The notes beneath the pieces are model-generated. The model was not told the DNA's origin and did no database searches. It was given only the letters and a program-made list of their open reading frames with translations. Shown one piece after another: positions 1 through 56,279 of a stretch of 64,000 bases of DNA (position 1 is its first letter; every line of letters starts with the position of its first letter). The stretch is from Candidatus Altiarchaeales archaeon (lineage in GTDB: Archaea; Altiarchaeota; Altiarchaeia; IMC4; SCGC-AAA252-I15): NCBI GenBank assembly GCA_014727915.1, contig WJMO01000006.1, positions 65,376 to 129,375 on the forward strand. The letters are read 5' to 3'. A program made the translations under genes and the position numbers.

Positions 1-1755
1 AGGGCGGGTTGTTATGATGACGTGCTCGTCCGGCGAAGCGGATATGTAGATGGGCACGTGCATGGTCTCGGCTATGAGAAGGGCCCTGCCCATCGTCGAA
101 ATCTGGAGGAAACGCCGCTCGGCCTCGTTAAGGTGGAACCGCTCCACTATCTGGTCCAGCACTGACGTGTCCTGCTTGAGCAGGAGCTTGGTCGCCGTGT
201 TGGTGAGGACCGCCCGACCCGCCCTCGAGACCAGGACGTCCTCGACGTCCTGGGTTATCATGATTAACCCCAGGTTGAACTTACGGCATGTCTTGACGAG
301 GCGGAGTATGTACTCAGCCTGCTCCCCGGCGCTCAGCACGGTCCACGCCTCGTCGATTACCAGTATCTTCCGGGTCTTGCTCTTCTTCATCTGGGTGTAG
401 ACGTACTCGAGCAGCAAGAACATTATGGTGCCCTTGCCGATGTCAGGGGCGTCCTTTATGTCGAAGCTTATCATGCGGTTGCTGAGGTCTATCTTCGTGT
501 GCTGGTTCAAGAACCTCATCGGCCCGAAAACGTAGCTCTTCAGCCGGTTCACTATGGCCATCGCAGGCACGTATATGATCTCCTTCTGCGACTTGGTCAG
601 GGGCAACACCTCGTTGTAGAGGTCTTCGAGCAGGGGGGGCTCCCTGCTCCACGTCTTGGGATCCTTGCTTATCCCCTTCTCCTCGTAGGTACGGTCTATG
701 GTCTCGTCCAATATGGCCCTCTGGGGCTCGGTGAGCTCTCCGAGGAGGCAGCGGAAGAACGCGAGCAGCGACAGCTTCTTCTCGTCGTAGGTCTGGTCCA
801 TCATGTCGAAGGGGTTGATGACGCTGTCCGAGTCGGGGGCGATCCGTATTATGTCTCCCCTGAACGTCTTAATCAGGTCGGCGTACTCCGCCTGCGGGTC
901 TATGACGTTTATGGACACGCCCTCCATGAACTCGCGCATGAGTATCAGCTTGATCGAGTAGCTCTTACCCCCTCCTGAAGTGCCGAGTACGAGTATGTTG
1001 GGGTTGGACAGCTCGAACGGGTCTATGATGATTGGTATGCTGTTGTACTCGTTGAATCCTATGAGTATTCCGGTGGCGTGCTGTTCCAGGGAGGTTATGG
1101 CGAAGGGGAAGCAGGCGGCGACTGCGGTGGAGGTTATGTTCTGCGTGACTTCGAGCTTGTCAGCCCCTAGGGGAAGCACGCTCTGGAGGCCCTGGTACAT
1201 CTGGTATGCGGGGACCTTGGGTATGATCATTATGCTGTTCATCGTGTCCCTTATCTGCTTGCTGACGCGGTCCAGGTCGTCCTTGTTGTATGCTTTGGCG
1301 TCTAGGTAGAGGGAGATGTCGAACATCTTCTCGTATCCGGCCTGTATAACCTGCAACAGGTCCATTGTGTCCTGGTGCTGCTGCAGCAGGGACTGGGGAA
1401 CTATCTTGCCCTCCATCTCGAGGGCGTAGAGGTCTGTCTTCTGCTTCTTTAGCTCGCTCTCCAGCAGCTTTATGGTGGTCGTCTTCTTGTAGGGGCTGAT
1501 GTGTATGGAGAGGTCGAAGTCCAGGTTCATCTGTATTAGGCGGGTCAGCCATCCGGGGTCCACGACACGCGGGTAGTTGATGGCGCAGATGACCTGGTGG
1601 TATTTGGTTATCTGGATGTCGGCCTTGTGTATGTCAATGGTCGAGGGGGAGGTCAGGTACTCTATGAGGCGGTCCTCGTATTCGGTGTATGTCTCAACAT
1701 CGGTCTTAACGTTTGCCTCTTTCTTCTTGCCCCCGCCGATGAACGGTAGTCCCAT
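1..1755 (-). CDS. VirB4/TrbE/CedB-like conjugative type IV secretion ATPase (C-terminal ~585 aa; gene runs off left edge of window)
   Basis: Own translation of minus strand: ATG at 1753-1755 preceded by in-frame TAG; Walker A VLGTSGGGKS (around 960-990), Walker B ILVIDEAW, RKFNLGLIMITQ motif typical of VirB4-family ATPases; not in ORF track because it is open at the window edge. Confidence 0.75.
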   Translation of the reverse strand, partial: MGLPFIGGGKKKEANVKTDVETYTEYEDRLIEYLTSPSTIDIHKADIQITKYHQVICAINYPRVVDPGWLTRLIQMNLDFDLSIHISPYKKTTTIKLLESELKKQKTDLYALEMEGKIVPQSLLQQHQDTMDLLQVIQAGYEKMFDISLYLDAKAYNKDDLDRVSKQIRDTMNSIMIIPKVPAYQMYQGLQSVLPLGADKLEVTQNITSTAVAACFPFAITSLEQHATGILIGFNEYNSIPIIIDPFELSNPNILVLGTSGGGKSYSIKLILMREFMEGVSINVIDPQAEYADLIKTFRGDIIRIAPDSDSVINPFDMMDQTYDEKKLSLLAFFRCLLGELTEPQRAILDETIDRTYEEKGISKDPKTWSREPPLLEDLYNEVLPLTKSQKEIIYVPAMAIVNRLKSYVFGPMRFLNQHTKIDLSNRMISFDIKDAPDIGKGTIMFLLLEYVYTQMKKSKTRKILVIDEAWTVLSAGEQAEYILRLVKTCRKFNLGLIMITQDVEDVLVSRAGRAVLTNTATKLLLKQDTSVLDQIVERFHLNEAERRFLQISTMGRALLIAETMHVPIYISASPDEHVIITTRP

Positions 1756-1760: not shown

Positions 1761-2678
1761 TCACCTCTTTCCTCCTTCCTTATCCGGTTCCGCCACGCCC
1801 ATAACAGGCTTGGGGGCCTCCTTCCACATCTTCCGGTACATGGTTATCGGGCTCAGGTATGAGTCGTCCAGTTCGAAGCTGTCCGTGAAGTAGGACTTGA
1901 AGAAGTTCGTTATCTGGTGAGTGCTCATGCGCTCCGCGACTATACCAGACAGGGACAGCCGCGATATCACCTCCTCGCACTGTGTTCCCAGGTAGTCGAC
2001 GGTCTCCTTCTCGCTCTTCTTCTTCTGGCCGTTGATTACGATGTAGAAGTGCCTGTCGTTTATCTTGTTTACTTTGATGTAGCTCCGCATGTACTCTGCG
2101 AAGTGCTCGTAGTATGCGAGGGCTATCTTGTCGTCCCTCTGGACTATCCTCCTCTTCAGATGCCGCAGATAGTCTTCGAGGTCCAGGTTCACAGACCGCA
2201 TGACTATCTGTATGGGGAAGTTCAGTGCGTTTACGAACTCCATGAAGCCCCATATGACCTGGTCCTTGTCCTGCTCGCTGAGCACTCCGAAGTTGATGGG
2301 GCGGACCTTTATCACTCCTAGCACCCGGGAGTCCTGAAGGAACACCGCGTCCGCTCGTATGGACTTGACACCCATGAGCTTCCTGGCTTCGGGGCTTATC
2401 CAGGATGTCTGCTTGGTCTGCTTCATGAAACCCACATAGTGGAAGAGGAACTCGTCCAGGTTGAAGAATGCTAGGCCGACCCCCAGCAGGGCGAGTATGA
2501 GCGCCACCGGCATCTTGACGGTGTCTGGAAGCTGGGGCATCTGAAAGTAGACTATGGCAGCGGCCAAGAGGCAGATTCCCAGGTAGGCGGACTGCTTGAT
2601 AGTGAGGGGGCCTAAAAGCCTTTCTTCATAGCGGATATCCTGGGGTATCTGAGCAGGCATCATTTTGATGAGCACCAA
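1761..2678 (-). CDS. membrane protein with 2 N-terminal TM helices + cytoplasmic domain, immediately upstream (5 nt) of VirB4-like ATPase; possible VirB3/VirB4 N-domain-like component
   Basis: 305 aa ORF; hydrophobic segments AYLGICLLAAAIVYF and MPVALILALLGVGLAFF; genomic context. Confidence 0.45.
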   Translation of the reverse strand: MVLIKMMPAQIPQDIRYEERLLGPLTIKQSAYLGICLLAAAIVYFQMPQLPDTVKMPVALILALLGVGLAFFNLDEFLFHYVGFMKQTKQTSWISPEARKLMGVKSIRADAVFLQDSRVLGVIKVRPINFGVLSEQDKDQVIWGFMEFVNALNFPIQIVMRSVNLDLEDYLRHLKRRIVQRDDKIALAYYEHFAEYMRSYIKVNKINDRHFYIVINGQKKKSEKETVDYLGTQCEEVISRLSLSGIVAERMSTHQITNFFKSYFTDSFELDDSYLSPITMYRKMWKEAPKPVMGVAEPDKEGGKR

Positions 2679-2733: not shown

Positions 2734-3930
2734 CTAGTAATACTCTTCCTCCTTGGCGAGCTCTTCCAGCCGCTTTATCTCCTCTTGGAACATCTTGCTG
2801 ACTTTCTTCTCCTCTTCGACTGTGAGGTTGTCGTATCCTCTGAGCTCCTCCTCATAGTCTTCCAGCTCCTTCTCCCGCTTCTTGACCTCCTCCTCCATCT
2901 TCTTCTCGGCGAATATCTCCTCATCGACGTCCTGGAACAGGCTCTCGAACTGGCCTCTAAGCTCCTTCCGGAACCATGCGAACTTGGGTTTCTTTGGTAG
3001 GAACCTGCTTACCAGCGCGTGCTGCCACCGCAATACCATGTTGTCGTAGTACCATCGCACTACCTTGCGGTCGCTGTTGCTGAGAAGGTCGTATGTTGAG
3101 ACGAATGTGAAGGGCATCGCCGACATGGCTCCTCCGCCCATCGGCCGGAGCCAGGTCATCCGGTCCTGGTCGTTTATGGACCTGTCCACTAGCTTCTCCC
3201 TTAGCATGAAACGCTGGGCCTCGTCCTGGTATAGCCTGGACAGCTCCTTCCTCTCCTTGGCTGATAGGTCTTGTGCGTGGGAGGCCAGCTCTCGTATCCT
3301 GTCTGTCCGCTGGTCTGATGAGTCCTCCAGTTGGTGGAGGTTCTCCACTTGGCGTTCCTCTATGGATTTCTCCATGCCTGACACCAGCCACATCCTCTTG
3401 TAAAGGTCCTTTAATGTTACTCCCTCCTGCTCTCCCTTCTGCTTTAGCTGGGCGTCCCATCTGCGGATCATAGCCTCCCGGACCAGCCCGAATGGTGTTG
3501 TGGCTATCGGCCGTATCTTGTGAAGTGGGGGCCGGCGTCCCGTTGAAGGCATGTGGGAGGATGACATTGACGCCAGCGACACCGCGGATGGGGGTGCGAT
3601 GGAGGGGAAGAAGGAGTCTGCGAATATGTTCCTCTCGACCGCCTCTTCCTCGTCGAGCCCGTCCCAGCGGGTCTTCTTCCTCTTGGATCTTCGGTGCTTC
3701 CTCCAACGCTGCGGGTCCGAGTCGTCTTTGTCGGGTCCGTCTCCGCTGACGGCCTGCTCTGATGATTCCAGGATCTCGCGTTCCATCATCTTGGAGCGTA
3801 CGCGCATGTCCTCGTCCAGCTGCGCGTCCAGCATTACGCGGCGCTCTTCGGATTCGGCGTCTAGCTTTCGTATATCCTCTTCTGTCTCTTCGGTCTCTTC
3901 CCGTATGCGCTTTTTGCCCTCGTCGGTCAT
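2734..3930 (-). CDS. highly charged (E/K/R/D-rich) coiled-coil hypothetical protein in transfer-like cluster
   Basis: 398 aa ORF, overlaps downstream gene by 4 nt (operon-like); no recognisable catalytic motifs. Confidence 0.5.
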   Translation of the reverse strand: MTDEGKKRIREETEETEEDIRKLDAESEERRVMLDAQLDEDMRVRSKMMEREILESSEQAVSGDGPDKDDSDPQRWRKHRRSKRKKTRWDGLDEEEAVERNIFADSFFPSIAPPSAVSLASMSSSHMPSTGRRPPLHKIRPIATTPFGLVREAMIRRWDAQLKQKGEQEGVTLKDLYKRMWLVSGMEKSIEERQVENLHQLEDSSDQRTDRIRELASHAQDLSAKERKELSRLYQDEAQRFMLREKLVDRSINDQDRMTWLRPMGGGAMSAMPFTFVSTYDLLSNSDRKVVRWYYDNMVLRWQHALVSRFLPKKPKFAWFRKELRGQFESLFQDVDEEIFAEKKMEEEVKKREKELEDYEEELRGYDNLTVEEEKKVSKMFQEEIKRLEELAKEEEYY

Positions 3931-5975
3931 TTCCTAGGTCTTTCCCTGTCGTCCTGGCTCCTGATTATCTTCTCCAGCTGGTTGCTGACAGCCTGCCATT
4001 CCGCCCGGTCCTTCTCGCTCTCCATCTTCTCCTTGACCACCTGTCGGGCGATGTTCATGTAGAACTGGTTACCTGCGAGCTGGCGTATCATGTCCCATCT
4101 CCTGTTTTCCAGCATGCTTACCATGTCATCGCGTGTCGGCTGCTTGTTCTGCTGGCCGGAGGGCTGTCTAGACGCCAGCTTGGGCTTTCCAGGCTCTAGG
4201 GGCGGGGCCTGTTCCGTCGGCTGCTGGAAGAATCCGGTCTTGTTCTGCGCGCCACCCTCACGCCTTAGGTCGGGCCTCATATACTTCACGCCACCCTGCT
4301 GTATGTGAACGTCCTGCCTCCCACCCACATGCATCGTATGGCCCCTTGGAGTTTCATCGTATGCTGTCTGGCGTTCGTCCCGGTCGGCTGTGCCTGCGGC
4401 CCGTGATTCTCCGCCTCCGCCCTCGAGTGTTGGCGCGCCCCTGCTCTTGGCCGTTTCGGCATATGATGATCCGCCGCCTACTGTCTTCTTGTCCAATGTG
4501 GTCCGTATCTCATCGCCGAATCCTCCGCCTCCCCTCTCTCCGCCGCCTAGGCCCCTTATCCTCCTAGCGGACTGTGAGGGCGTTTGGAATGTGGTGCCCG
4601 GCGCTGGAGCCTCGCCCTGTCCTTCGCCTCCTTGCCCCGGGCGCTGCTGCTGTTGCATGGACATGGCCGTGCGCCCGGTGCTGCCGAACACGGGACCGTA
4701 GCTGGTCCCTTCAGCCGGCAGCTGACGTCTTGAACCCCCACCACCTGCTGAGGGGCTCCCACCTGTCGACCCCATGAAACCGCCTGAGGGGGCTGAGCCC
4801 AGCGCGCCGGCCCCTCCCCTGAGGCCGCTTTGATAACGCTCGTATGCCCTCATCCTCGTGAACTCGGCGTGCGCGAAGGGTAGTGCGCTGGCTCCCTGGC
4901 CTGCAAGCAGCCCCCCTACCGCGACCATCCATGTCCTGCCTGACCCGAGGCCGACTGCTATGACCGCGTTCCCAAGCCAGGACATCAGCATCCCTGTGAC
5001 GAACGGTGCTAAGACGAAGAAGCAGATTCCTGCGACGACTATCATGCCCGCCAGGGAGTCGCTGATTATCTTTTGTATCGTCAGCGTGCCGCCTGTCATG
5101 ACGAGGCCGTCCATGGAATCGGAAAGCGTCACTGTGAAAGCGAGTATGAGAGCCTGTAGTGCCGGGGCGAAAACCCATTTTAGGGATGCGTTGAACCATT
5201 TACGCCCGTATGGTTTCGTAATCTCGAATGAGTACAGGAAGAGTATCATGGGGAAGAACACGCCATAGAAGAAGACGAGCATGTTACGGACCCATACTAT
5301 GATGGCTCCGAATAGTATGATGAGCGCGGATAGGTATGCGAAAATGCATGAGAGGGTGACCGAAACCGATCTTGACTTGGTCAGGCCTAAGGCTATCTTA
5401 TCCGCCTTTTTGCGGACGTCGCCGAACGGGCTTAGTTGCAGTGGCATTTTGAAGACGCCGAAGTTGACTTCCGGCTCATGGCCTTCCAGGAACATCCGGA
5501 CTATCATCTCTGACAGCTCTATCATCGCCTGGTAGATGAGGGGTGCGAGCGCGACCACGACCATGCCGAAGAGAAGGCGCAATAGCATGCTCCTGGCTCT
5601 CGCTCGACCGCGCGGGGATCCTGCTTTGATGACGAAGAACAGCCCTGTGAAGAGCATGGCGATAACGTAGAATGGAGCCATTATCCGGAACCACTGCTCT
5701 ATCAGGACGTCGACTCCCATCTCGACCTGGCAGCATCCCGGGCCGGGGTTAGTGGTGCAGGATGTTCCGGGAAGGCAGAACATCTGGGGGTTGTATGTGA
5801 GCTCTCCTATTATCACAGGCCATGTGATCGTTATGGCCAGCTGGGCGGGCAACATTATGACCGTGACCACGGCATCCCAAAGGTCGGACATCCCCAATGT
5901 TGCGGATACGGGGAGCGTCAGCTGCATCATTATGATGGCCAATGCCATCAAGCATGTGAGCCTATTCTTTCTCAT
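3927..5975 (-). CDS. polytopic membrane protein (VirB6/TrbL-like candidate) with Gly-rich low-complexity C-terminal region; N-terminal membrane domain paralogous to 6434..11431
   Basis: 682 aa; signal/TM N-terminus, many TM helices; shared motifs with the giant neighbour (SPRGRARARSML vs DPGQRARAKDML; FPMILFLYSFEITKPYG vs FPFTLFLYFFEYTRSFG; ...TLSDSM vs ...STDSM). Confidence 0.55.
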   Translation of the reverse strand: MRKNRLTCLMALAIIMMQLTLPVSATLGMSDLWDAVVTVIMLPAQLAITITWPVIIGELTYNPQMFCLPGTSCTTNPGPGCCQVEMGVDVLIEQWFRIMAPFYVIAMLFTGLFFVIKAGSPRGRARARSMLLRLLFGMVVVALAPLIYQAMIELSEMIVRMFLEGHEPEVNFGVFKMPLQLSPFGDVRKKADKIALGLTKSRSVSVTLSCIFAYLSALIILFGAIIVWVRNMLVFFYGVFFPMILFLYSFEITKPYGRKWFNASLKWVFAPALQALILAFTVTLSDSMDGLVMTGGTLTIQKIISDSLAGMIVVAGICFFVLAPFVTGMLMSWLGNAVIAVGLGSGRTWMVAVGGLLAGQGASALPFAHAEFTRMRAYERYQSGLRGGAGALGSAPSGGFMGSTGGSPSAGGGGSRRQLPAEGTSYGPVFGSTGRTAMSMQQQQRPGQGGEGQGEAPAPGTTFQTPSQSARRIRGLGGGERGGGGFGDEIRTTLDKKTVGGGSSYAETAKSRGAPTLEGGGGESRAAGTADRDERQTAYDETPRGHTMHVGGRQDVHIQQGGVKYMRPDLRREGGAQNKTGFFQQPTEQAPPLEPGKPKLASRQPSGQQNKQPTRDDMVSMLENRRWDMIRQLAGNQFYMNIARQVVKEKMESEKDRAEWQAVSNQLEKIIRSQDDRERPRK

Positions 5976-6429
5976 TATCGGCCTCCCGTTTACCGTGTTG
6001 TGTCATGAGGTCTTCACGGGCTTTCTCCGCTGCTGTTTTGAAAAGCATCCTTATGCGGCGTTCGTCGTATCCTGCATCTATCATCTTGGCCCAGATACCC
6101 TCGCCCTCTGCCTTCAGTTCCTTTCCTTTGGCGTGTTCCCCGGCTGCCCTGTCGTAAAGCTCCAGAGGAAGGGTGAAACCGCATTTTCCGCATATGTAGT
6201 TTTCGCCCTTGAGCACGAGGGTGTCCCTGCAGGCTGGGCACTGGTTCTCCTCAAAGACCTTTACCCAGTCGATGGTCAGGTGGGGGTCCCTCACCCGGGC
6301 TCCGTATTTGTGCTCTACAACATGCCAGTAGATGTCCTCGTGGGCGGTGTCTGAGACGCGGTGTAGGTACCGCCTTCTGAAGTGGTCTATCGCCTCCCGT
6401 TCAAGGTCTTCTTCTTTCGCCATTCTCAC
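5962..6429 (-). CDS. zinc-ribbon protein (C-x2-C-x15-C-x2-C, TFIIB-ribbon-like)
   Basis: 155 aa; NQCPACRDTLVLKGENYICGKCG motif; overlaps the upstream gene by 14 nt. Confidence 0.5.
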   Translation of the reverse strand: MRMAKEEDLEREAIDHFRRRYLHRVSDTAHEDIYWHVVEHKYGARVRDPHLTIDWVKVFEENQCPACRDTLVLKGENYICGKCGFTLPLELYDRAAGEHAKGKELKAEGEGIWAKMIDAGYDERRIRMLFKTAAEKAREDLMTQHGKREADNEKE

Positions 6430-6433
6430 CGTA

Positions 6434-9400
6434 TTATATTTGTGCGTGGGCTCTTAGCCATTCCCGGGTCGTCTCGTACTCGTTGATGGAGTTGATATCA
6501 TGGACTGGGACGTTGTTGGCGTCTGTTGCGTTCACACGGGCCTGTATGTCCGCCCGCATCTGCTGTAGCTGCTGTGCTTGGGCGGGGGTCATCTGCCCGC
6601 CGTATTGTCCTTCGAAGTATTCTGACAGGACCGAAAGCCGTGCCATGTTCATAGCGTCCTGGCGTGAGCCGTCGTATGTGGTCGCAGTCCTCTGGGAACG
6701 TTCGACCCACCTTTCCATCGCGGTTCCCAGGTCGTCGGGGCTTTGGTCTATGTCTACCATGCACCTCTCGTCCGCGCCGAATTCCCGCATAGTGTCTTCC
6801 ATGTTGGGCTGTCCGAGGTCCCATCTGACGCCTTCCCACGCGAGCTCCGCCCTGCTCCTGCTCCAGCCCTGGGCCGACATCTGCCTTTGTATGTACTCCT
6901 CCCTCGAAGTCTCCATGTTGGACTGCAGGCTTCTTTCCGCGGGGCTGTGACCTAGTTCGTGGGCCAGGTCCACAGACCCCAGAGTTTCAAGGTATTCGCG
7001 CATGTTGCCCTGGAATACCCGCTGCTGGTCCTGGAGGCTCAATCCTTCGGGTATCTGGCCGTGTGTCTGCCTAACCATGTGGGCGAGGTTCACCTGCAGG
7101 TTGACTCCGTTGTCTGACGCCAGGTTCACCCCGTGGCCGGTGCGCTCTATAAGCATGGAGTTCCCGTCTGATTCGTCATAGTATAGTTGTAGGTTGTGGA
7201 GGCTCATGTTGCCACCGTACTGTTGGAATGACTGCCACATCCGCGTTTTGATGGCTTGCAGGTCTGCGTCGGTCAGGCCTGCCTGGTCAGCCATTTCAAG
7301 CTCCTGCTTGCTGAAGTGTATGTTGGCGTCCGCTTCCGCCATCATCCGCCGGGCATCGTCCGCGTCCGATCCTATGCCGTACTCTGTGTGCAGGGATTCC
7401 GCGATGCTGGTCCGGTATGCGGTGGCCCGGGCCTGCATCTGCTTCTTGTATTCGCTGTGCTTCCGCTTCCTCATCTCTATGAAGGCACTCTGCAACTGGG
7501 CTTCGTTCATGGACATTATGGCATTCGCGTTCCCGGGGTCTTCCGAGAGCATGTAGTTGCGCACGTCCTCGGCGGAGATTGGTCCGGCGTGTTCGCTTGG
7601 CATGCCCAGCGCCAGGTCGGAGATGTTGTCCCTTGTGGCGAGCATCGCCGCGACCGGGGTTTGCATCTCGGTCTTCCAGTTCGGGCCGGCGTCCTCGTAT
7701 CTCCACTCCCCGAAGTGCCGGTAGGCGCGGTATTGGAGCTCAAGCTGTCCGCTGGCGTTCAGCCTCGCGCCAACTACCTTCCGGGGTATGGGAGCCCTGT
7801 AGCTCAGCGGGTCCACGGCAGTCAGGTTGAGAGCGTCATAGTCGACGTCCTGGCCTGCCTGGAGCTGGGATACTAGAGATGATACCTTAGCCTGTACCTG
7901 GGGGTCCTGCTGGTTCATCAGCATGTCCGCCGAGGTCCACTCACGAACTCTCGCGACCGCCACCCTGTCGCCGTCTATCACGTATACGCCGTTGCCCACC
8001 AGGGCGACCGGGGTTTCCACTCCGAACTCGTCTCTCACATTGATGGCTTGGGCGCCGACCTTCTGGCTCTCATTGACCCTCACAAGCTCCACACCCTCTA
8101 CTTCGGCTTCTGCCTCATGCGCTATCGCGCCGTCCGCAGGCCGGCCGTATTCGTCTGTGTCTTCGAACTGCCAGAACTTGAGCCTCCGCGTCTGCCCGAA
8201 CTCGTACCTGTGGAGTTCGTCGGCGGCCCAGTCGTCCCGGCCCATCATCTTGGACAGGTAGGGCATGTCGAAGTGGCTCATGTATACGCCTCCCTCGCCG
8301 TCGCGCTGGAGGTTAAGGTTCTTGGTGCGGGCCTTCACTATCGCCTCGTCATAGCTCATGCCGCCCATGACCATCGCCGCGACATAGTCTGCCTGGTATC
8401 GGTATTCCATCTTCCTCGCTGCGGAAGCGTATTTTCCTTCCAGTTTCATGAACCTGCGCCTGCGCATCTTCCCGTCCCGTTCGGTGAAGAGCACGCCGTC
8501 TGTGACGTTGGCTCCTGATGCTGCGGCGGCCTGCTGGGCTTCCGAGTAGTTGTTCCTCCTGAAGAGCCTCTGGTCATCAAGCGATGTTATGCCCATGTTC
8601 TTCATCGCGACTACGTCCAAGAACGCTCCCTTGTCCAGGCCCGCGACCAGAGCATGGTATTGGCTGGGGTCGGATTGTTTCATTGTCTCGAGAGCCTGCT
8701 CGTCCGCGACCTGGCCCGTCAACAGCAGCGCCCGGTCTGCGGTGCCCAAGAATTCCTTCTCGCCTTCTGTCCGGTTTGCGGGAGCCTTTGCCCAGCACTG
8801 GCTCCCACGGCACTGGTCCCATGACTTGTCTGCTTCTTTGACGTTTACTAGGTGGTCTTTGTCCATGCCCTCTCCCGTCACCACGCTCCGCTCCAGGTAC
8901 TTCTTCTTCAGGTTGGGTGGCATGGCATCGAGGTGGGTGAAGTAGGATTGGCGGTCTATGTTCCCGGCTATGGGCGTGCCTATGTAGTTCATCATGTCCA
9001 GCGTCCGGAACATGCTCTCCTCCATCGTGGCCATCTCAGACCTCCATTCAGCAAGCTTTTGCGTGTTCCTGTCCGCTGGGTCTTTGGCTTCCTCGCGCTC
9101 CGCTGCGGCTTCCAGTTCGCGGTGGTGGGCCTTGTAGAATGACATCTGAGCGGACCATTTGCTGCGCCAGTACATCTGCCTCAGGCTCAACCCCATCATC
9201 CCCCTCCCAAGCCATACCGCATAGGGCTGTATCTCCGAGGGTAGGTGGGATGTGGCGAATGAGGCCAGTATCCTTCCCACAGCACGGACCGGCATGAACG
9301 GGCTTATGGGCCTCATGGACCATAGTAGCCTGCCAACTCCCTTGGCAACGTCGGCCAGGCCCTGGCCAACCGACTGTCCCGCACCCTCATAGAGTGTCTT

Positions 9401-11431
9401 TAATCCCCTTCCTAGGTCTGCCATCCCGTCGAATGCGGTGTCAACCCGGTTTCGTATGTTAAGGGCTGGCAGTATCCCTGCTATAGTCTCGCTTGACTTG
9501 TACTCTCCCTCTGTGCCGCGTGTGCTGGTGAAGTCCTCGTCCGCTGATACGGGGGCTCCCTTCTTGCTTACGCCCTCTCCGAACCTGTCGAATGCGGGAA
9601 GCCTTGAGGACATGGACCTGGGTTCCTGGCCGCGGGCAGCTCCGATGTCGTGTTCGGTGTGTAGTAACGCGCCTGGACGTGCTTCTCCCATCATAGATGA
9701 GGATACGCCTGTGGACCCCATACCATGCCCTGGCCTCCTGACGCCGCCGACGACTCCGCCGGGAGCTCCCACCTGGGGTGTGCCGTAGATGCCACCTGCG
9801 GACTTTTCCCGCCAGTACCGTTGGCTGTCAGCTCCCTGAGACCGGAACACCTGCCCCAATCCCTTGAAGAAGCCGACGTTTGACGGCTGGCGTGGGGTGC
9901 TACTCCCTGTGAATGTGTCTCGCACGTCACTCCAGCCGGGCCATATTCCCCTGCTGGCCATTCCATCCCGGCTCATCATGCTGGCCTGTGTGGCCGCGGT
10001 CACTATGCCTGACGACCCGGCGCCGGTCAGCCCACTGCCCAACGCTATCATGCTGAAGCTCTTCCAGAAGTCGGTCCTCGTGTTAGCTGCGACCATGTTG
10101 GTCATGCCGGAGGCTGCCATCGCGCCCCCGATCCACTTCATCAATTGGGTCATGAACAGGGGTATGACGAGCATGCAGAGGCATCCTGCCATGAAAACGA
10201 ACAACGCCAGTATCTTGCCCATTATGTTCTCCCCCACGGATATCATAACGCCGCTTGGGGTTGCAGCCTTCACCTTAGGGGAGAGTTTGTGTATGCTACT
10301 CCTGTCAATGGCACTTGAGGGGCTGTAGGGTTCGTAGTATTTGTTGACTGCCACCATCGAGTCCGTGCTGAAACTGACGAGGCTCATCGTAGCAAGCAGT
10401 GTTACCGAGAAGACGAGAGCTATGACTGGGCCCATGAATATCCAGGTCAGTGTCTTCATCAGCAGGTTGCCGCCGAAGCTCCTTGTGTACTCGAAGAAGT
10501 AGAGGAACAGTGTGAAGGGGAATATTAGGTAGAAGAGTATTATCAGGGCCCATCTTATGAAGAGCAGCATTACCACCATCACTAGGAATGCCGCAACCCA
10601 CCATAGTAGGAAGAGCCCAACCCCGAAGTAAAGCATTATCAGTATGATACCGCCGAAGACGAGCACTATGTATGCCATGGCCGAGGAGCCTCCCTGGCTA
10701 CCCGCCACCAGCTCGTAGGTGTCGTCGAATATCTGGTTGGATATCCCGTTGGCTAGGTCGTCGTTGAGGAATATGTATATGTGCTTCGAGACGCCGATCA
10801 CGATTATCGCGACTATGAGCTTGGTGAGCATGTCCTTGGCCCTCGCCCTCTGACCCGGGTCTATGGATGAGAAGAGGAGGTAGGCGGCCGTCACCAGTAT
10901 CTGTATGAATAGGAAGGGCATAACGAGCCGCAGCATAAGGCCGTATAGTGAGTCGTAGTAGTCCCAGCTGGGCTGGAACTGTATTCCCAGCTTCAAAAGC
11001 CAGACAAGGCCGCCGATAAGGTATTCCAATGCCTTGCCTATCCAACCCATCACCTCCTCCCATACGATCCCGGCCAGAGCCTTCAACATGGGGTTCTGGA
11101 ACAGGCAGTCGACACCCAGCACATATGGGGCGGTGGCCATCTTGTCCACGCGCCACCAGTTCTCGCCCACCGGCCATCCACCCGACTCGTAGTCTATTAT
11201 TTTCTCCTTCTTCCCGTATTCGGTAACAGCCCTCTCATAGCAGTCATACCAGTCTGTGACGACCTGGCTGGTGGTCTCGGCGGTGTCTCGGACGTTCTTC
11301 ATGAAGAAATATTTGTAGCCCTCCCATGTGATGTCGTCCAGGGAGAAGGGGGCGCTGGAAACGAGAGGGGAGAGGATGAAAGATGCTAAAACCAGGGATG
11401 CCAGCATCAGTTTTATCCTTCGGAGGTTCAT
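6434..11431 (-). CDS. giant (1665 aa) secreted/polytopic membrane protein: N-terminal VirB6-like membrane domain, Gly-rich linker, long soluble region with a zincin HExxH motif (DLAHELGHS) near the C-terminus
   Basis: Signal peptide MNLRRIKLMLASLVLASFILSPLVSSA; many TM helices in first ~450 aa; paralogy to 3927..5975; HELGH motif seen in translation. Confidence 0.6.
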   Translation of the reverse strand: MNLRRIKLMLASLVLASFILSPLVSSAPFSLDDITWEGYKYFFMKNVRDTAETTSQVVTDWYDCYERAVTEYGKKEKIIDYESGGWPVGENWWRVDKMATAPYVLGVDCLFQNPMLKALAGIVWEEVMGWIGKALEYLIGGLVWLLKLGIQFQPSWDYYDSLYGLMLRLVMPFLFIQILVTAAYLLFSSIDPGQRARAKDMLTKLIVAIIVIGVSKHIYIFLNDDLANGISNQIFDDTYELVAGSQGGSSAMAYIVLVFGGIILIMLYFGVGLFLLWWVAAFLVMVVMLLFIRWALIILFYLIFPFTLFLYFFEYTRSFGGNLLMKTLTWIFMGPVIALVFSVTLLATMSLVSFSTDSMVAVNKYYEPYSPSSAIDRSSIHKLSPKVKAATPSGVMISVGENIMGKILALFVFMAGCLCMLVIPLFMTQLMKWIGGAMAASGMTNMVAANTRTDFWKSFSMIALGSGLTGAGSSGIVTAATQASMMSRDGMASRGIWPGWSDVRDTFTGSSTPRQPSNVGFFKGLGQVFRSQGADSQRYWREKSAGGIYGTPQVGAPGGVVGGVRRPGHGMGSTGVSSSMMGEARPGALLHTEHDIGAARGQEPRSMSSRLPAFDRFGEGVSKKGAPVSADEDFTSTRGTEGEYKSSETIAGILPALNIRNRVDTAFDGMADLGRGLKTLYEGAGQSVGQGLADVAKGVGRLLWSMRPISPFMPVRAVGRILASFATSHLPSEIQPYAVWLGRGMMGLSLRQMYWRSKWSAQMSFYKAHHRELEAAAEREEAKDPADRNTQKLAEWRSEMATMEESMFRTLDMMNYIGTPIAGNIDRQSYFTHLDAMPPNLKKKYLERSVVTGEGMDKDHLVNVKEADKSWDQCRGSQCWAKAPANRTEGEKEFLGTADRALLLTGQVADEQALETMKQSDPSQYHALVAGLDKGAFLDVVAMKNMGITSLDDQRLFRRNNYSEAQQAAAASGANVTDGVLFTERDGKMRRRRFMKLEGKYASAARKMEYRYQADYVAAMVMGGMSYDEAIVKARTKNLNLQRDGEGGVYMSHFDMPYLSKMMGRDDWAADELHRYEFGQTRRLKFWQFEDTDEYGRPADGAIAHEAEAEVEGVELVRVNESQKVGAQAINVRDEFGVETPVALVGNGVYVIDGDRVAVARVREWTSADMLMNQQDPQVQAKVSSLVSQLQAGQDVDYDALNLTAVDPLSYRAPIPRKVVGARLNASGQLELQYRAYRHFGEWRYEDAGPNWKTEMQTPVAAMLATRDNISDLALGMPSEHAGPISAEDVRNYMLSEDPGNANAIMSMNEAQLQSAFIEMRKRKHSEYKKQMQARATAYRTSIAESLHTEYGIGSDADDARRMMAEADANIHFSKQELEMADQAGLTDADLQAIKTRMWQSFQQYGGNMSLHNLQLYYDESDGNSMLIERTGHGVNLASDNGVNLQVNLAHMVRQTHGQIPEGLSLQDQQRVFQGNMREYLETLGSVDLAHELGHSPAERSLQSNMETSREEYIQRQMSAQGWSRSRAELAWEGVRWDLGQPNMEDTMREFGADERCMVDIDQSPDDLGTAMERWVERSQRTATTYDGSRQDAMNMARLSVLSEYFEGQYGGQMTPAQAQQLQQMRADIQARVNATDANNVPVHDINSINEYETTREWLRAHAQI

Positions 11432-11667
11432 CTTCGGGAGTGTGAGTAGGGTATAATATACTATTATAAAGAAATAAGAAAAGAAAGATCCTCATATCAG
11501 GTCATGTGATATTGTGGGGGCTGGTTCCTTTCATAGAGTTTTTTTGGCGGGCGGATCGTTTGATATCAGCCAGGCCAAGATGTTGATGTCTATCGTCTCA
11601 TGCCCGGGGGATGGGCAGGTTAACAGCCGTGCAATATTATTTGGTTTCATAAGAAAAAAAAGGTAGG

Positions 11668-11688
11668 TGGCCGGTTTTTTGACCGGCA
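11668..11688 (-). terminator. hairpin (GGCCGGT-TTTTTG-ACCGGC) followed on the minus strand by a T8 tract, immediately downstream of the pilin gene stop
   Basis: Inverted repeat read directly; on minus strand the hairpin is followed by CCTACCTTTTTTTT. Confidence 0.4.
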
Positions 11689-11695
11689 CATTGCC

Positions 11696-12046
11696 CTAGG
11701 GGTTTGCGTATATTCCACCACAGCCCTGAGCGTTTGAGATCACTAGAGCAACTAGCCACACTGCAGCAAGGACTATGACTATACCGACTACCGCATGGAT
11801 AATACCCTGCTTAGCCTGCTTCCTTGCTCCTGGGTCTTCAGCTGACCCAATCCACTTGATACCCTGTAGAGCTACGACAACAACGCCGACTCCACCGGCT
11901 ATCGCGACCAACAACCACTTGATGTTGGACAGAACAGTGCAGATTACGTCTCTTGCACTCTCAGCTCCTGATGCCTGCGCAGACACGAAGCTGGCAACCA
12001 TCAAGAGCGCTAGGGCCACTACAAATAGTGTCCTAAACTTTTTCAT
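11696..12046 (-). CDS. VirB2/TrbC-like conjugative pilin (CedA1/TedC-like): signal peptide + two hydrophobic helices joined by a basic loop
   Basis: 116 aa; MKKFRTLFVVALALLMVASFVSAQA signal peptide, helix1 LSNIKWLLVAIAGGVGVVVVALQGIKWI, loop GSAEDPGARKQAKQG, helix2 IIHAVVGIVIVLAAVWLVALVI; strong terminator downstream. Confidence 0.6.
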   Translation of the reverse strand: MKKFRTLFVVALALLMVASFVSAQASGAESARDVICTVLSNIKWLLVAIAGGVGVVVVALQGIKWIGSAEDPGARKQAKQGIIHAVVGIVIVLAAVWLVALVISNAQGCGGIYANP

Positions 12047-12184: not shown

Positions 12185-12487
12185 CTATTTGAGTTCTACC
12201 AGATTGCCGTATGGGAACCATGGCTTGCTGGTGGCTTCGACGAGCAGGTCAAATGTTGTCTGCCGAGGCAGCTTACCGGTCTCTACGAACTCTATGAACT
12301 CTGCCTCCTGGCCATATGCAAAAAGAAGGGCGTATTTTATAAGTTGAGTCTGGCTTATTCGTATGTTCTTGCTCTTCAGCAGATGGTAGTTAATGGTCTT
12401 TATTATTGTCAGGGTCTCATCGTCGACCCTCTGAGTCGTGGATCTGGAGCCTCCCGGTTTCCCGCTCTTCTTACCCATAGCTACCAT
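12185..12487 (-). CDS. small hypothetical protein (100 aa) upstream of the pilin gene
   Basis: ORF with Gly/Lys-rich N-terminus; no recognisable motif. Confidence 0.4.
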   Translation of the reverse strand: MVAMGKKSGKPGGSRSTTQRVDDETLTIIKTINYHLLKSKNIRISQTQLIKYALLFAYGQEAEFIEFVETGKLPRQTTFDLLVEATSKPWFPYGNLVELK

Positions 12488-48779: not shown

Positions 48780-49991
48780 TTAGGGGCAAACTAACGCCTC
48801 TTTAACCAATGTTCGGTTTTCTGACTTCTTAAATTTGTTTTCGAGCCAGTTTCTAAACTCCTGATTCTTGTACAGTTCTATGAAGAATTTCCTGGCCTCC
48901 TGTTCCTCTTTCTCGATTGCTCCGAGGGCTTCATCGACTAGTGGTGTTGCGCATCGGTTGCAATACCAGCTGTCTGGTGTGTTAGTTTTGTTGCATTTGC
49001 CGCATTTCCGGGGTTCTCTCGTCTCCATTGGTTCTGGTGGTTTGATTCCGTTCATCCCCAGTATTACATCATCAACATCTCGGCCGCTCAGGTGGACGTA
49101 GGTTGCGGCCATGTCTGAGCCCATTATCCATCCAAAGAACGCGCATAGTTGGCTTTCAGTCATTATTTTCGCGAGTTCTGTTGCTCGGCTGTGTCGGAAG
49201 TTGTGCGGGTGGCATTTGGCAGATGGAATGGCTGCGGCTTTTGCGTTTCTTTTTATCATCAATCGTATTGCATCATATCTCATGGGATTCTTGTATTGGA
49301 AGTCTAGCCAAAGGGGTGCGTCCATGTCGTCGCCGTGGGGGTGGTTCCTAATCCAGACCCTGAGGTATTGTTCTGGCTCCAAAACCAATATGCTCCTGGC
49401 TCCCGTCTTCCCCTTATGGACGTGTATCCTTGCCCCATTCTCCTCAAACACTATGTCCTTTACTCGGAGGGATCCGAGTTCACCAACTCTCAAACCTCCA
49501 TAATAAAGTAGGGATATTATGGCTCTGTCTCGGTCGAATTTACACGCCCTGATAATGGCGTCTACTTCCCCTATTGCTATCAGCTGTTCTGGAAGCTTCC
49601 GGTCCCTCCTCTTGACAGAGCATTTTATGAATTCTACCTTTTCGGGAGCTTTCCCGCCGTTCATTACCTTATAGAATTTCTTTATCCCTACTTTCAGGTC
49701 CTTCTTTGTGTGTGCAGCGGAGTCACAGAAATTTATGGTAGTCACCAGCTCCCGGAGGTCTTTCTCAGTCGCGTCCAAAAAGTCAAAATTGTAGTCTGAT
49801 AACTTCATGATTTTGCCATATATGGCATAGTATTTGCGGATGCGCATTTCCCCAATATTCTCTGAAGCTATCAGGTTGACGAACTCGTTTATGGCGTCTT
49901 TGTTTTTCTGGGTGATTCTTGGGTCTTGGTTGAACTTGTTCTTTTCGTAGCCTATGCCGTATTTGCCCCGGTAGATAGAGTTAGCGTCCAT
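48780..49991 (-). CDS. int: tyrosine recombinase / integrase (XerC/D-phage integrase family) with C-terminal zinc ribbon
   Basis: HNFRHSRAT (HxxR) and ATYVHLSG (catalytic Tyr) motifs; CGKCNKT...CNRC ribbon; gene abuts tRNA 3' end. Confidence 0.85.
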   Translation of the reverse strand: MDANSIYRGKYGIGYEKNKFNQDPRITQKNKDAINEFVNLIASENIGEMRIRKYYAIYGKIMKLSDYNFDFLDATEKDLRELVTTINFCDSAAHTKKDLKVGIKKFYKVMNGGKAPEKVEFIKCSVKRRDRKLPEQLIAIGEVDAIIRACKFDRDRAIISLLYYGGLRVGELGSLRVKDIVFEENGARIHVHKGKTGARSILVLEPEQYLRVWIRNHPHGDDMDAPLWLDFQYKNPMRYDAIRLMIKRNAKAAAIPSAKCHPHNFRHSRATELAKIMTESQLCAFFGWIMGSDMAATYVHLSGRDVDDVILGMNGIKPPEPMETREPRKCGKCNKTNTPDSWYCNRCATPLVDEALGAIEKEEQEARKFFIELYKNQEFRNWLENKFKKSENRTLVKEALVCP

Positions 49992-50333
49992 CCTCCCTCA
50001 AAAGCCGGCAGGCTTCCTCCCAGGACAATCCAAAGCCCTGAATAAGCCTCCGGAACAGTGTTATATGCTCTGGCAGGGTCTTCTCCAGTAAAATCTCATA
50101 CTGCTCTTCCACACATACATATAGGACGAGATTCGACTTGTCCTTACTGCAAAAACCTATAGATTCCACGTACACACGTGAGACACACACCTATAAAAAC
50201 TAGTAGGACTCTGCAGTAGAAGACCAATAGCTTAACTTCTTCTAATAGGTTGGCAGATGCGTTTCAAATATAGATAGGTGCAAGTATTCTGCTGGATTTG
50301 TCCTTTTTTATGGTTACTATCAATGTTTTTCAT

Positions 50334-51977
50334 ATGCAAATATCTTATGCTCATTGGATATCTGTGATATTTCTCTTATGCGCTTTTTCAGGTTGTGTTT
50401 CTGAAGATGTCAAAGATAATACTAACCTGTCGGAGGAGGTAGGTACTGGGAGTTCACCCTTGGATGAATACCTAGCCACCTATGACCGTTTGTTCGTCCA
50501 TGGGAGGGAGATAAATGCATCGTTTAACCGTTTGGATCTTCTTCAGACTCAGCGGGTTAATCTGTTCACTGACTTAGAGAACCTTGCTGGCAGCCCAAGG
50601 GTAATGCACAGTGAGGCTGAGATGGAGGAATTTCAGTCCCAAGTAGACGATATTCTCCAAAATATCAGCGACGTATTGAGTGCCGAGCGGGAGACATTGG
50701 ACCTGCTTGAGATGCAGGCTAGCCAACGGGAGGAGTATATACGCAATCTGAGCGCCAAGTCAGCAGGTCTTGATTCGGAGCGCATGCAATACGCCGATAA
50801 GATTGGCGAATACTTCCAGAAATCGAATGTCCGCCTGATGGAGTTTGTATCCCATTACCAGAACCATGTGCGTCTGACTAATGAAAGCCTGCAGAGGATT
50901 ATACGCCGGGAAGGCAGCAGCGGCTACCCTGAAGAGCGTGTAAACACGGCAATTCTCATAAGAAAGAGTCATAGGCAGATGAATGAGTTGATAATACTCG
51001 GCAAAGACGAATACGCCAAATTGCTCCAGACAGCTGACACCCCCATAAACAAGTCCATAGTGAAGGTCTATATCTGCCCAGATGAGAGGGAAGTAGGCGA
51101 TATCGAAGAATGCGGGCTGACGGAAAACGACCTGACCTACATTAACCTCGCCAAGAAACTGCTGGAATGCGACGAAATACCCGAAGGCGAAGAGAACACC
51201 AAATGCTACTACGACGCCATAGTGCCGTTCTACAACATCTCCCTGTGCGAAATAATCGGAGATACCGAATGGAGAAATGGGAACATATGGAAGGGATACT
51301 GCTACGCCGACATAGCCAAACACTACAACAACGAGTCAATCTGCGCCAAAGGCAAGGACTGGGTTCGAGTTGAGTACTGCTATGAGATGGTAGCCCGGAA
51401 AAAACAAGACATAACAGTCTGCGAAAACATCAAAGAGGACCGTCGTAGCATGTGCTATATGTACATAGGCTTGGACAAACGAGACAAGGACATCTGCAAT
51501 ATGATACCTAGAGACGACATAAGAGAAAGCTGCCTTGACAAAATCGGAGGAAACAAACCGGATGCTGGAGCAACTGATGATTCCAAATCTGACAGCCAGG
51601 TCCTTGGCCTAGAGCCCCAGCACATACTAGGCGTTAATATGCCCCCTGAAGAAGGTCTTAGAGTACTTGAGATTATAGCCGTGCCGAGGAAAAACAGTGA
51701 ACCCCTGCATCTACCCCCAGTAACAATACAGGTGACAGCCAGCGATGAAGACATATACTTGAATCACAGCTTCCAGTCAATAAAGCAGGGCACAGCCTAC
51801 AGGGAAGGCTACCTGTCACAAGGAGACATCATAATGATAACCATAAACCTCAAAGAAGCCGTCAAAGAAAACCAGAAACTCAAAATCAAGATAATCCCAG
51901 AAACAGGCACAACCACAATTGCAGAACCCGCCACACCCCAACAGATAATCACCCAAAGAACCAACATCTGGCCATAA
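50334..51977 (+). CDS. secreted lipoprotein: coiled-coil N-half, Cys-rich C-half
   Basis: Lipobox LLCAFSGC (start placed at internal Met 50334); heptad-like region; 20+ Cys in C-terminal half. Confidence 0.45.
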   Translation: MQISYAHWISVIFLLCAFSGCVSEDVKDNTNLSEEVGTGSSPLDEYLATYDRLFVHGREINASFNRLDLLQTQRVNLFTDLENLAGSPRVMHSEAEMEEFQSQVDDILQNISDVLSAERETLDLLEMQASQREEYIRNLSAKSAGLDSERMQYADKIGEYFQKSNVRLMEFVSHYQNHVRLTNESLQRIIRREGSSGYPEERVNTAILIRKSHRQMNELIILGKDEYAKLLQTADTPINKSIVKVYICPDEREVGDIEECGLTENDLTYINLAKKLLECDEIPEGEENTKCYYDAIVPFYNISLCEIIGDTEWRNGNIWKGYCYADIAKHYNNESICAKGKDWVRVEYCYEMVARKKQDITVCENIKEDRRSMCYMYIGLDKRDKDICNMIPRDDIRESCLDKIGGNKPDAGATDDSKSDSQVLGLEPQHILGVNMPPEEGLRVLEIIAVPRKNSEPLHLPPVTIQVTASDEDIYLNHSFQSIKQGTAYREGYLSQGDIIMITINLKEAVKENQKLKIKIIPETGTTTIAEPATPQQIITQRTNIWP

Positions 51978-55682: not shown

Positions 55683-56279
55683 ATGGCTTTTAAAGGCCTT
55701 TTTTTAATGGGTTTATCTGGTGGTTGGATGATGTATCATAAGGCTTATGTTTTAGCGTTTTGCGTTATCTTATGTGGTTGTTTACAGTCAGAAGACAGTT
55801 CTACTACGTTAACCTCTACGAGCAGTACACTACCTCAATCCACTACTACTAACCCGTCCACAACTCTTAAATTACCTCCCTCAACCACTACAACAACATT
55901 ACATTCTAGAGAAAATGGTTCCATCATTTATCCCAACCAGGAGATTAGAGAGGACATAAATAAGATAATTATTATGTTTAATGATGAAGTTTTAGACAAT
56001 ATCACTGCTAAAGTCAAATATAATGCAAGTCATCCAAACGAAAAATTTGATAAATATTTCATATATGATTTGCAATTAGAAACTGAAAAAGAATACGGTG
56101 TTAAAAATCTAACAAGGAGATACTATTCACTAATCAATGGTGGCTCCGTCACCATTTCATACGATGAGAATCTATCCGATGCAGATAAGAAAATAGCAGG
56201 CGATAAACTCCTCAATAACCTAGATAATAGATGGTATACTAAAAACGCTGGATACAATGTGATAGGTACTTACACATGA
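55683..56279 (+). CDS. lipoprotein with Thr/Ser-rich stalk and I9-like C-terminal segment
   Basis: Lipobox ILCGC; RRYYSLINGGSVTISYDENLSD resembles TRYSLINGFSGYVTKEGLKKLE of the subtilase propeptide. Confidence 0.4.
   Translation: MAFKGLFLMGLSGGWMMYHKAYVLAFCVILCGCLQSEDSSTTLTSTSSTLPQSTTTNPSTTLKLPPSTTTTTLHSRENGSIIYPNQEIREDINKIIIMFNDEVLDNITAKVKYNASHPNEKFDKYFIYDLQLETEKEYGVKNLTRRYYSLINGGSVTISYDENLSDADKKIAGDKLLNNLDNRWYTKNAGYNVIGTYT

Follow-up and report, generated by a model that had tools for sequence, protein, structure and literature searches.

Why would a channel subunit of a type IV secretion system (T4SS) in an archaeon carry some 1170 hydrophilic residues behind its membrane domain, and why would these residues lead to a motif of zinc proteases? 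In this work we have followed this question in a stretch of 64,000 nucleotides of Candidatus Altiarchaeales archaeon (contig WJMO01000006.1, positions 65,376 to 129,375; hereafter the window), where one open reading frame (ORF) encodes a protein of 1665 residues which we call the giant. The ORF is open from its ATG to its stop codon and is 100% identical to the NCBI entry 'MAG: hypothetical protein GF416_04130 [Candidatus Altiarchaeales archaeon]'; the membrane protein of 1665 residues is thus real and comes from an uncultivated archaeon of the phylum Altiarchaeota. A preliminary description, made from the letters of the window, had seen in it a VirB6-like membrane domain with a paralog next door and a zincin motif. 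The reading towards which we lean, and which we consider fairly probable, is that the giant is an extended VirB6 channel and pilus-platform subunit of a domesticated Altiarchaeota T4SS, with a cytoplasmic tail that carries at its end a tethered zinc hydrolase, the target of which would be a protein at the entrance of the channel.

The likeness to VirB6 comes first of all from the predicted fold. An AlphaFold2 model of residues 1-496, built on 19 family members and with a pLDDT (predicted local distance difference test) of 70-93 in the membrane core, was compared with 48,164 chains of the PDB, and its top two matches were TrwI/VirB6 of R388 and DotA of the Legionella Dot/Icm system (structures 7o3v, 9ngy), although the sequence identity to them is only 7-11%. 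Together with the operon in which the gene lies, which also encodes VirB4, VirB3 and pilin homologs, this bears out the VirB6-like domain of the preliminary description. The systems of TrwI and DotA have a VirB5/IcmX partner, whereas none is recognisable in the locus of the giant. Profile libraries gave fainter signals: in a Pfam scan of the N-terminal domains of the 19 members, T4SS_pilin matched 9 of them (best value 2e-7), TrbL (PF04610) one at 7.4e-4 and TraG_N (PF07916) one at 6e-3, the last two below the curated cut-offs, and the giant itself matched neither TrbL nor TraG_N. Searched as a whole against Pfam, NCBIfam, PHROGs and PADLOC, the giant yielded nothing above threshold, T4SS_pilin being a sub-threshold match, and a LigA match from these libraries was discarded as spurious. 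Sequence searches of the PDB with the giant and with three family profiles, among them that of the N-terminal domain, came back empty.

The first 490 residues can be divided into a signal-like hydrophobic segment (residues 6-24), an extracytoplasmic head of about 140 residues, a pilin-like transmembrane (TM) hairpin and further TM helices; hydropathy and the helices of the model place about seven hydrophobic helices within residues 169-427, in agreement with the signal peptide and the many TM helices proposed earlier. The pilin-like Pfam matches are located in the first TM hairpin, whose cytoplasmic loop (SSIDPGQRARAK in the giant, AGSPRGRARAR in the paralog) mirrors the loop SAEDPGARKQAK of the pilin encoded in the same operon, and a loop motif DPGxRxxAK is common to the pilin and to the first TM hairpin of both the giant (10847-10903) and the paralog. 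The same kind of pilin-like N-terminus was described by Beltran et al. in 2023 for both CedA and VirB6, in the pairs CedA/CedA1 and VirB6/VirB2 (PMC9905601). The neighbour of 682 residues shares collinear motifs with the giant, as had been noticed, and the relation is that of true paralogs, since BLASTP aligned residues 160-486 of the giant with residues 89-375 of the neighbour at E=1e-16 and 26% identity. Orthologs of this paralog have 611-700 residues, those with a named taxon all being from Altiarchaeota, and genes of 657 and 770 residues stand at the equivalent position in two of the related contigs compared below (L001 and L003). We conclude that the N-terminal part of about 490 residues has the VirB6/DotA fold according to the model, opens with a pilin-like TM hairpin and is duplicated in the 682-residue neighbour.

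Behind the membrane domain, a hydropathy scan found no clear TM helix in the remaining part of about 1170 residues, and the giant fits the class of extended VirB6 proteins because this long hydrophilic part follows a VirB6-like domain. Both VirB6-like proteins continue into glycine-rich stretches, as previously stated (16-20% Gly in residues 501-700 of the giant, 27% in residues 401-500 of the paralog); in the giant, residues 491-640 form a linker of variable length which aligns poorly among homologs. It is followed by the most widely kept soluble module of the family (residues 641-760) and by a fast-evolving middle part (residues 761-1360), which had no match in Pfam, NCBIfam, PHROGs, PADLOC or the PDB sequences. 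A word-indexed search with the giant returned two homologs, of 31% and 28% identity, and an exhaustive HMMER search with a profile of the soluble half against 1.84 billion representatives found only 28 proteins, most of them 1400-2260 residues long. The most distant of these match only the module of residues ~641-760 (profile positions ~1-150). Every relative with a named taxon is from Altiarchaeota and one is labelled only 'uncultured archaeon'; the family is restricted to Altiarchaeota. That the source of the window is an archaeon is also indicated by the eRF1 gene near the locus.

What lies at the end of the tail? In all relatives that extend to the C-terminus, the last part in common is a domain of about 300 residues, and HExxH precedes the end of this shared region by 150-280 residues. 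The soluble part had been described as ending in this motif; the motif (H1491-E-L-G-H1495) is indeed real and the sole HExxH of the giant, but it sits 170 residues before the C-terminus and not at the very end. A single HExxH arose in 2.7% of shuffles of the giant's sequence and the motif alone is weak evidence; that it is not due to chance follows from its conservation in all 23 relatives which cover the region, as HExxH in 20 and as HExxGH in the other three. The three variants might be taken as disproof of a zinc site, but we rejected this, because active M49 dipeptidyl peptidases III occur with both HExxGH and HExxH (PMC5805324). In an alignment of 20 domains with 14-26% identity to the giant, only four of the 676 columns are invariant, and these are H1491, E1492, H1495 and E1550. 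N1448, in a strand about 40 residues before HExxH, and A1597 are near-invariant; in the motif that begins with E1550, Ala or Ser at +3 is near-universal and Asp at +4 is confined to the closer subfamily. A hidden Markov model of the domain finds every relative reaching the C-terminus, including three from outside the training set (P0012 at 5e-23, P0027 at 4e-19 and P0026 at 2e-10). The AlphaFold2 model of residues 1361-1665 (pLDDT 89; pTM, the predicted template-modelling score, 0.82) has a helix, three strands of which the last is QVNLA, a long helix containing HELGH (model residues 106-140) and a later helix with E1550 (181-202), an order which we take to be that of the zincin core. As read from the alignment, the invariant H, E and H with the downstream Glu make up a gluzincin signature, and the C-terminal domain is probably a zinc hydrolase with a gluzincin-type site, which we assign to no family.

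Two relatives are longer than the rest. P0004 (residues ~1700-2261) and P0006 (residues ~1200-2011) have 600-850 extra residues past the common C-terminal domain, in which a second HExxH (RHEELH / RHEKLH) stands after a TLAVDF strand. This region is no significant repeat of the first domain (independent E-values of 1-5), and in P0006 the extra module also has a YHDFGYPE stretch with an HD-like look.

Several results weigh against the catalytic part of our reading. A Pfam scan found no peptidase family in any of the 20 C-terminal domains, and a fold search with the confident model of residues 1361-1665 (pLDDT 89) gave no zincin match. With hhalign, the domain profile reached 9% probability against a profile of four E. 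coli M48 members, with only the motif covered, and 2%, 9% and 3.5% against HtpX, LoiP and SprT, respectively. The likeness to M48 consists of HExxH, the Glu of ExxAD (REFGAD in the giant, REFHAD in E. coli HtpX, QEAEAD in LoiP) and an upstream strand containing Asn, and in a greedy alignment the upstream helix, the two strands and HExxH were collinear but the Glu motif was misplaced. However, the giant has no significant profile-profile similarity, no Pfam Peptidase_M48 match and no fold match to the M48/M56 proteins HtpX, LoiP and BlaR1. Membership in a protease family is thus unproven, because neither a zincin fold nor an M48 profile was matched, and we make no M48 assignment. The zincin signature of the preliminary description therefore stands as far as the conserved HExxH and its invariant downstream Glu are concerned, and had no backing from the fold search or from peptidase profiles. 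It may be that the site belongs to no peptidase and is a structural metal site, or that of another hydrolase, in a helical scaffold on which VirB4 or the soluble partners dock. We think this unlikely: the four invariant residues correspond exactly to the two His ligands of gluzincins, to their general base Glu and to the Glu that is their third ligand, and a purely structural site would not need a Glu beside the first His.

On which side of the membrane does the tail lie? Averaged over the 19 members, the net charge of successive loops is +2.7 (residues 188-204), -2.3 (224-250), +1.1 (313-326), -1.7 (353-402) and +2.2 (428-460); the loop at 353-402 is variable, acidic and rich in Thr, Ser and Pro, and the N-terminal head carries a net negative charge. 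The positive-inside rule then predicts that what follows the last clear TM helix lies in the cytoplasm, and with it the tail of about 1200 residues. A charged tail (rich in Arg, Lys and Glu, with three Cys after residue 640 and no conserved Cys pair) and soluble operon partners with no predicted TM or signal-like segment, one of them a Cys4 zinc ribbon, agree with this location. A cytoplasmic C-terminus is also the accepted topology of Agrobacterium VirB6. Two points speak against it: the topology is based on hydropathy and charge, and the conserved amphipathic segment of residues 456-486, rich in Gly and Met and with a mean hydropathy of about 1.2, might cross the membrane as an eighth TM helix, in which case the tail would lie outside.

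Could the tail then be extracytoplasmic and its zincin cut the envelope, be it an S-layer, pseudomurein or a periplasmic matrix, as an analogue of VirB1 or PrgK? An enzyme that opens the envelope usually comes with type IV systems, and the locus has no recognisable one; besides the possible extra helix at residues 456-486, the fast evolution of the giant, typical of exposed proteins, would also suit such a role. However, the charge pattern of all 19 members puts the post-TM segment inside, the Arg/Lys/Glu-rich composition of the tail and its lack of a conserved Cys pair point the same way, the operon partners carry no export signal, and Pfam scans found no lytic transglycosylase, glycosidase, NlpC/P60, CHAP or M23 domain. 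Moreover, Ca. Altiarchaeum hamiconexum, which has been studied better than any other member of the phylum, possesses two membranes, an inner and an outer one, but lacks an S-layer (PMC4460559), which removes the substrates suggested in the preliminary description (S-layer or pseudomurein), at least for this organism. We regard an extracytoplasmic role as quite unlikely. The analogy drawn there to the cell-wall hydrolases of Gram-positive conjugation systems is likewise unsupported, because the charge distribution puts the tail in the cytoplasm and Altiarchaeum has no S-layer. VirB1, PrgK and TcpG are also enzymes encoded within T4SS loci, but they are separate extracytoplasmic glycosidase or endopeptidase proteins, whereas in the giant the enzyme-like domain, of the zincin type and with a predicted place in the cytoplasm, forms one chain with VirB6.

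The preferred reading, a VirB6 protein with a cytoplasmic hydrolase, draws further support from the genes around it (Table 1). The minus-strand operon runs from a small ORF through a VirB2 pilin, the giant, a Zn-ribbon protein, the VirB6-like paralog, a 398-residue protein and a VirB3/VirB4 N-domain protein to the VirB4 ATPase. From the giant onward, gaps or overlaps between the genes are at most 14 nucleotides, except for 55 nucleotides before the VirB3-like gene, and the Zn-ribbon gene is translationally coupled to the giant. Between pilin and giant there are a T-run after the stop codon of the pilin gene and a TATA-like TTTATAATA before the ATG of the giant. The pilin was matched by Pfam T4SS_pilin (1.5e-10) and TrbC (3.7e-9) and by the NCBIfam Mbov_0395 pilin-like family (1.5e-5). 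The 305-residue protein was matched by Pfam PrgI (6e-9), by positions 28-278 of NCBIfam VirB4_plasma (1.3e-14) and also by TrsD, and in NCBIfam VirB4 matched the CD1110 type (7.6e-88) and VirB4 of Mycoplasma integrative conjugative elements (8e-71), with CedB at only 1e-14 (54 bits, cut-off 700). In all loci VirB4 occurs as two genes, one for a VirB3-like TM segment with the VirB4 N-domain (~300 residues) and one for the ATPase (~760 residues); the small gene is annotated as TraC-like in L001 and L003. A frameshifted pseudogene was considered for this pair and rejected, because the split is identical in these two contigs. The remaining proteins of the operon lack TM helices and are poorly characterised by profiles: hydropathy scans found no TM or signal-like segment in the Zn-ribbon and 398-residue proteins, of which the former had only sub-threshold zinc-ribbon matches in Pfam and NCBIfam and the latter no family match in the libraries scanned (including these two), and the small ORF matched nothing in Pfam, NCBIfam, PHROGs or PADLOC.

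Table 1. Features of the locus and of other parts of the window; the last column gives the protein identity to contig L001 (window 1-12487 against L001 9149-21581).
Feature	Position	Strand	Remarks	Identity to L001
Small conserved ORF	12185..12487	-	100 residues, no TM helix; head of locus	62%
VirB2/TrbC-type pilin	11696..12046	-	116 residues; signal peptide, two TM helices, loop SAEDPGARKQAK	62%
Giant, extended VirB6-like	6434..11431	-	1665 residues; stop codon 6434..6436	28%
Giant, residues 1-490	9962..11431	-	predicted VirB6-fold membrane domain, paralogous to ORF 3927..5975	
Giant, residues 491-640	9512..9961	-	Gly/Ser/Pro-rich linker, probably disordered; 16-20% Gly	
Giant, residues 641-760	9152..9511	-	soluble module; ILPxLN...ISPFMPxR...LPP..QPY..WxGRxMMGLSxRQ	
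Giant, residues 761-1360	7352..9151	-	soluble middle; islands GKMRRRRFMKL, NLxLxRDGxGxVYMS, RDDWA	
Giant, residues 1361-1665	6437..7351	-	C-terminal alpha/beta domain with putative HExxH...ExxAD site (AlphaFold2 model, domain profile)	
QVNLAHM strand with N1448	7076..7096	-	strand 82-88 of model	
H1491-E-L-G-H1495	6947..6961	-	putative zinc-binding/catalytic motif	
E1550-F-G-A-D1554	6770..6784	-	putative third zinc ligand (ExxAD)	
Zn-ribbon protein	5962..6429	-	155 residues, soluble, Cys4 (CPAC...CGKC); starts 4 nucleotides past stop of giant	42%
VirB6-like paralog	3927..5975	-	682 residues, GF416_04120; membrane domain and Gly-rich tail, no HExxH	41%
398-residue protein	2734..3930	-	highly charged, soluble; position conserved	35%
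VirB3 (PrgI)-like TM segment fused to VirB4 N-domain	1761..2678	-	305 residues	75%
VirB4 ATPase	1..1755	-	585 residues seen, leaves window at left edge; Walker A GTSGGGKS	85%
Split VirB4, both genes	1-2678	-	L001 18390-21581; L003 20415-23579	
Glycosyltransferase-like genes	12681-16347	+	L001 4189-8964; L002 4096-7429; L003 7295-8959	
PheRS-beta-like gene	16178-17194	+	338 residues	
Low-GC island	48700-58100		36-49% GC against ~55% elsewhere	
Tyrosine integrase	48780..49991		opens low-GC island	
Protein with archaeal-flagellin-like C-terminus	50298..51977		in low-GC island	
'New_glue'-like proteins	52523..54406, 55683..56279		in low-GC island	
Subtilase with I9 propeptide	56276..58087		in low-GC island	

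Is this locus a part of the chromosome or the cargo of a mobile element? We compared it with the Altiarchaeota contigs L001, L002 and L003 and with the short contig of P0002. The full gene order recurs in L001 and L003, where it is extended past VirB4 by an ORF of about 55 residues and two more pilin genes; the locus of the window, in which the side beyond VirB4 falls outside, therefore probably has three pilin genes. In L002 the small ORF, the pilin and the giant are present with other genes in between, and the short fourth contig shows the first five genes of the locus. The small ORF has counterparts of 98, 94 and 92 residues at the equivalent position in L001, L002 and L003, and the Zn-ribbon protein has counterparts of 156-175 residues in L001, L003 and the P0002 contig. 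On the pilin side, PMT_2-type membrane glycosyltransferases flank the locus in the window and in all three larger contigs; a gene similar to the beta chain of phenylalanyl-tRNA synthetase (PheRS) lies nearby in the window, L001 and L002, eRF1 in the window and L002, and a phospholipase-D gene in L001 and L003. In the window and in L001-L003 we saw no relaxase, VirD4-type coupling protein, replication gene or integrase adjacent to the locus, whose GC (guanine plus cytosine) content of 52-60% is that of the genomic background. Since gene order and flanks are shared across contigs and mobility genes are lacking beside it, the locus has the look of a minimal T4SS-like apparatus that is fixed in the chromosome and inherited vertically, and not of a mobile element.

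That the locus might instead be the transfer module of an integrative conjugative element, with the giant as an element-specific accessory, is suggested by its VirB4, VirB3 and pilin, which are closest to monoderm conjugative elements (CD1110 type, Mycoplasma elements, TrsD), and by the tyrosine integrase of the window. However, this integrase, the only one in the window, opens a separate low-GC island 37 kb away. The glycosyltransferase flank is kept in all four contigs and the PheRS-beta-like, eRF1 and phospholipase-D genes in two or three, though the giants are only about 28% identical, and genes for a relaxase, a coupling protein, replication or integration are missing from the immediate vicinity. 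We rejected it on the synteny and the lack of mobility genes, and hold it to be very improbable.

The chromosomally fixed apparatus does not evolve evenly. As Table 1 shows, identity to L001 falls from the motor proteins to the giant, which evolves faster than any other gene of the locus. The divergence of the giant and of its presumed soluble partners exceeds that of the motor by far, and yet the four residues of catalytic type do not change. A motor conserved at 85% beside a channel giant conserved at 28% points to strong diversifying pressure on the giant, and such fast divergence suggests conflict-driven selection on the giant or a role of the giant as carrier of the system's specificity. 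This also keeps alive the reading of a released or exposed tail. Could the tail be a cargo or specificity module, freed by cleavage of the linker (possibly by its own zincin) and delivered to neighbouring cells, or a determinant of mating specificity or exclusion? In bacteria, extended VirB6 proteins have been associated with exclusion specificity and with the occurrence of cleaved fragments, as with TraG of F and VirB6-2 of Ehrlichia. A long, flexible Gly-rich linker separates the anchor from the tail, and the extra C-terminal modules of P0004 and P0006, with their second HExxH, also speak for this reading. On the other hand, domain order and catalytic residues are fixed in all members, unlike in polymorphic toxin tips, and no immunity-like gene pattern was seen at the L001 and L003 loci. 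We therefore consider a cargo or specificity tail unlikely.

How might the giant work, if it is an extended VirB6 protein with a cytoplasmic hydrolase? The apparatus would be a minimal T4SS of VirB2 pilins, VirB3, a split VirB4 and two VirB6 paralogs, serving chromosomally encoded DNA or protein transfer. The two paralogs may form an oligomeric membrane platform on which VirB4 assembles the pilins. After the Gly-rich linker, about 1000 residues of family-specific sequence would extend into the cytoplasm, where the tail probably associates with the co-operonic soluble Zn-ribbon and 398-residue proteins. The domain of about 300 residues with HExxH...E would be a zinc-binding hydrolase, most probably a peptidase, and, tethered at the cytoplasmic channel mouth, it could cleave a protein that passes through or regulates the channel. 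Candidate substrates are a secretion substrate or pilot protein, a pilin precursor, a regulator and the linker of the giant itself. BlaR1, in which an M56 zinc protease domain on a polytopic membrane protein faces the cytoplasm, offers an analogy for the regulator. In a bolder picture, which in our estimate is doubtful, Altiarchaeota carry a vertically inherited type IV apparatus whose hypervariable giant channel subunit has a tethered protease gating or processing the passage, for instance by removing a pilot protein from DNA or by releasing its own tail as cargo, and whose tail sets partner specificity. We know of no type IV system with such a protease-coupled mode of operation.

Extended VirB6 proteins are widespread, and several are known from bacteria: TraG of the F plasmid, the RvhB6/VirB6 paralogs of Rickettsiales and TcpH of Clostridium share with the giant a polytopic VirB6-type N-domain and a large hydrophilic C-proximal region, and VirB6 paralogs in tandem occur in Rickettsiales as in the locus of the giant. 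A 2025 review defines this class and states that the role of the large soluble extensions is not known (PMC12857230). In contrast to the bacterial proteins, the giant is archaeal and chromosomal, and no similarity in sequence was detectable between its tail and the bacterial extensions; we found no description of an invariant HExxH...E domain at the tail end for any VirB6. The closest parallels among archaea are the Ced and Ted systems for DNA import of Thermoproteota, which are chromosomal and have a VirB2-like pilin, a VirB6-like channel with a pilin-like N-terminus and a VirB4-like ATPase, and no relaxase or coupling protein (PMC9905601). The locus described here, known from its genes, likewise combines chromosomal VirB2-, VirB6- and VirB4-like genes with no relaxase or coupling protein seen. 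However, it is not orthologous to Ced or Ted, as its VirB4 scores far better on the CD1110 type than on CedB (7.6e-88 against 1e-14) and the giant has no NCBIfam match; further differences are its VirB3-like gene and its two giant VirB6 paralogs, and neighbours of the HerA, Rad50 and ParA kind were not seen.

A bacterial parallel is found in Patescibacteria, whose chromosomal T4SS is derived from MPF-FATA, lineage-wide and composed of VirB4, VirB3, VirB6 and VirB2-like pilins, usually without a relaxase (PMC12102498). Like the Altiarchaeota locus it is chromosomal, minimal and related to monoderm conjugation machinery, but it is bacterial and the study reports no VirB3-VirB4 fusions in its dataset, so the partial fusion in Altiarchaeota is a distinct arrangement; nor did a zincin-bearing VirB6 turn up in the passages of it that were searched (PMC12102498). 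A literature search for an Altiarchaeota T4SS or a protease-bearing VirB6 found nothing, which is not proof of absence. Thus extended VirB6 proteins and domesticated archaeal T4SS are already known as classes, while we found no description of the VirB6-zincin combination or of the Altiarchaeota system.

Alongside Ced and Ted, the locus adds a third type of archaeal T4SS domesticated in the chromosome, and the one closest to monoderm bacterial conjugation machinery, in a phylum whose member cultivated by enrichment has a double membrane. It bears on how T4SS machines cross archaeal envelopes and on the exchange of genes or material in Altiarchaeum biofilms. The four invariant gluzincin-like residues give a testable handle on the role of extended VirB6 tails, and if a protease-coupled T4SS were true, it would be the first enzymatic function for such a tail.

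Some further observations concern the surroundings of the locus. The flanking glycosyltransferase-like genes encode one to three large membrane proteins per locus, with PMT_2 matches in L001-L003 and weak DUF2079 matches in the window. Perhaps the sugar acceptors of these adjoining enzymes are the pilins or the extracellular head of the VirB6 proteins. The PheRS-beta-like gene has only B5 and catalytic-like (CLM) domains and is presumably shorter than the canonical archaeal PheRS beta chain, the counterparts in L001 and L002 having 268-274 residues; its true start probably lies farther downstream, because the listed ORF overlaps the upstream glycosyltransferase ORF by 170 nucleotides. Lastly, the low-GC island, which is probably an integrated element and has no relation to the T4SS locus, holds besides its integrase a protein with an archaeal-flagellin-like C-terminus, two 'New_glue'-like proteins and a subtilase with an I9 propeptide.

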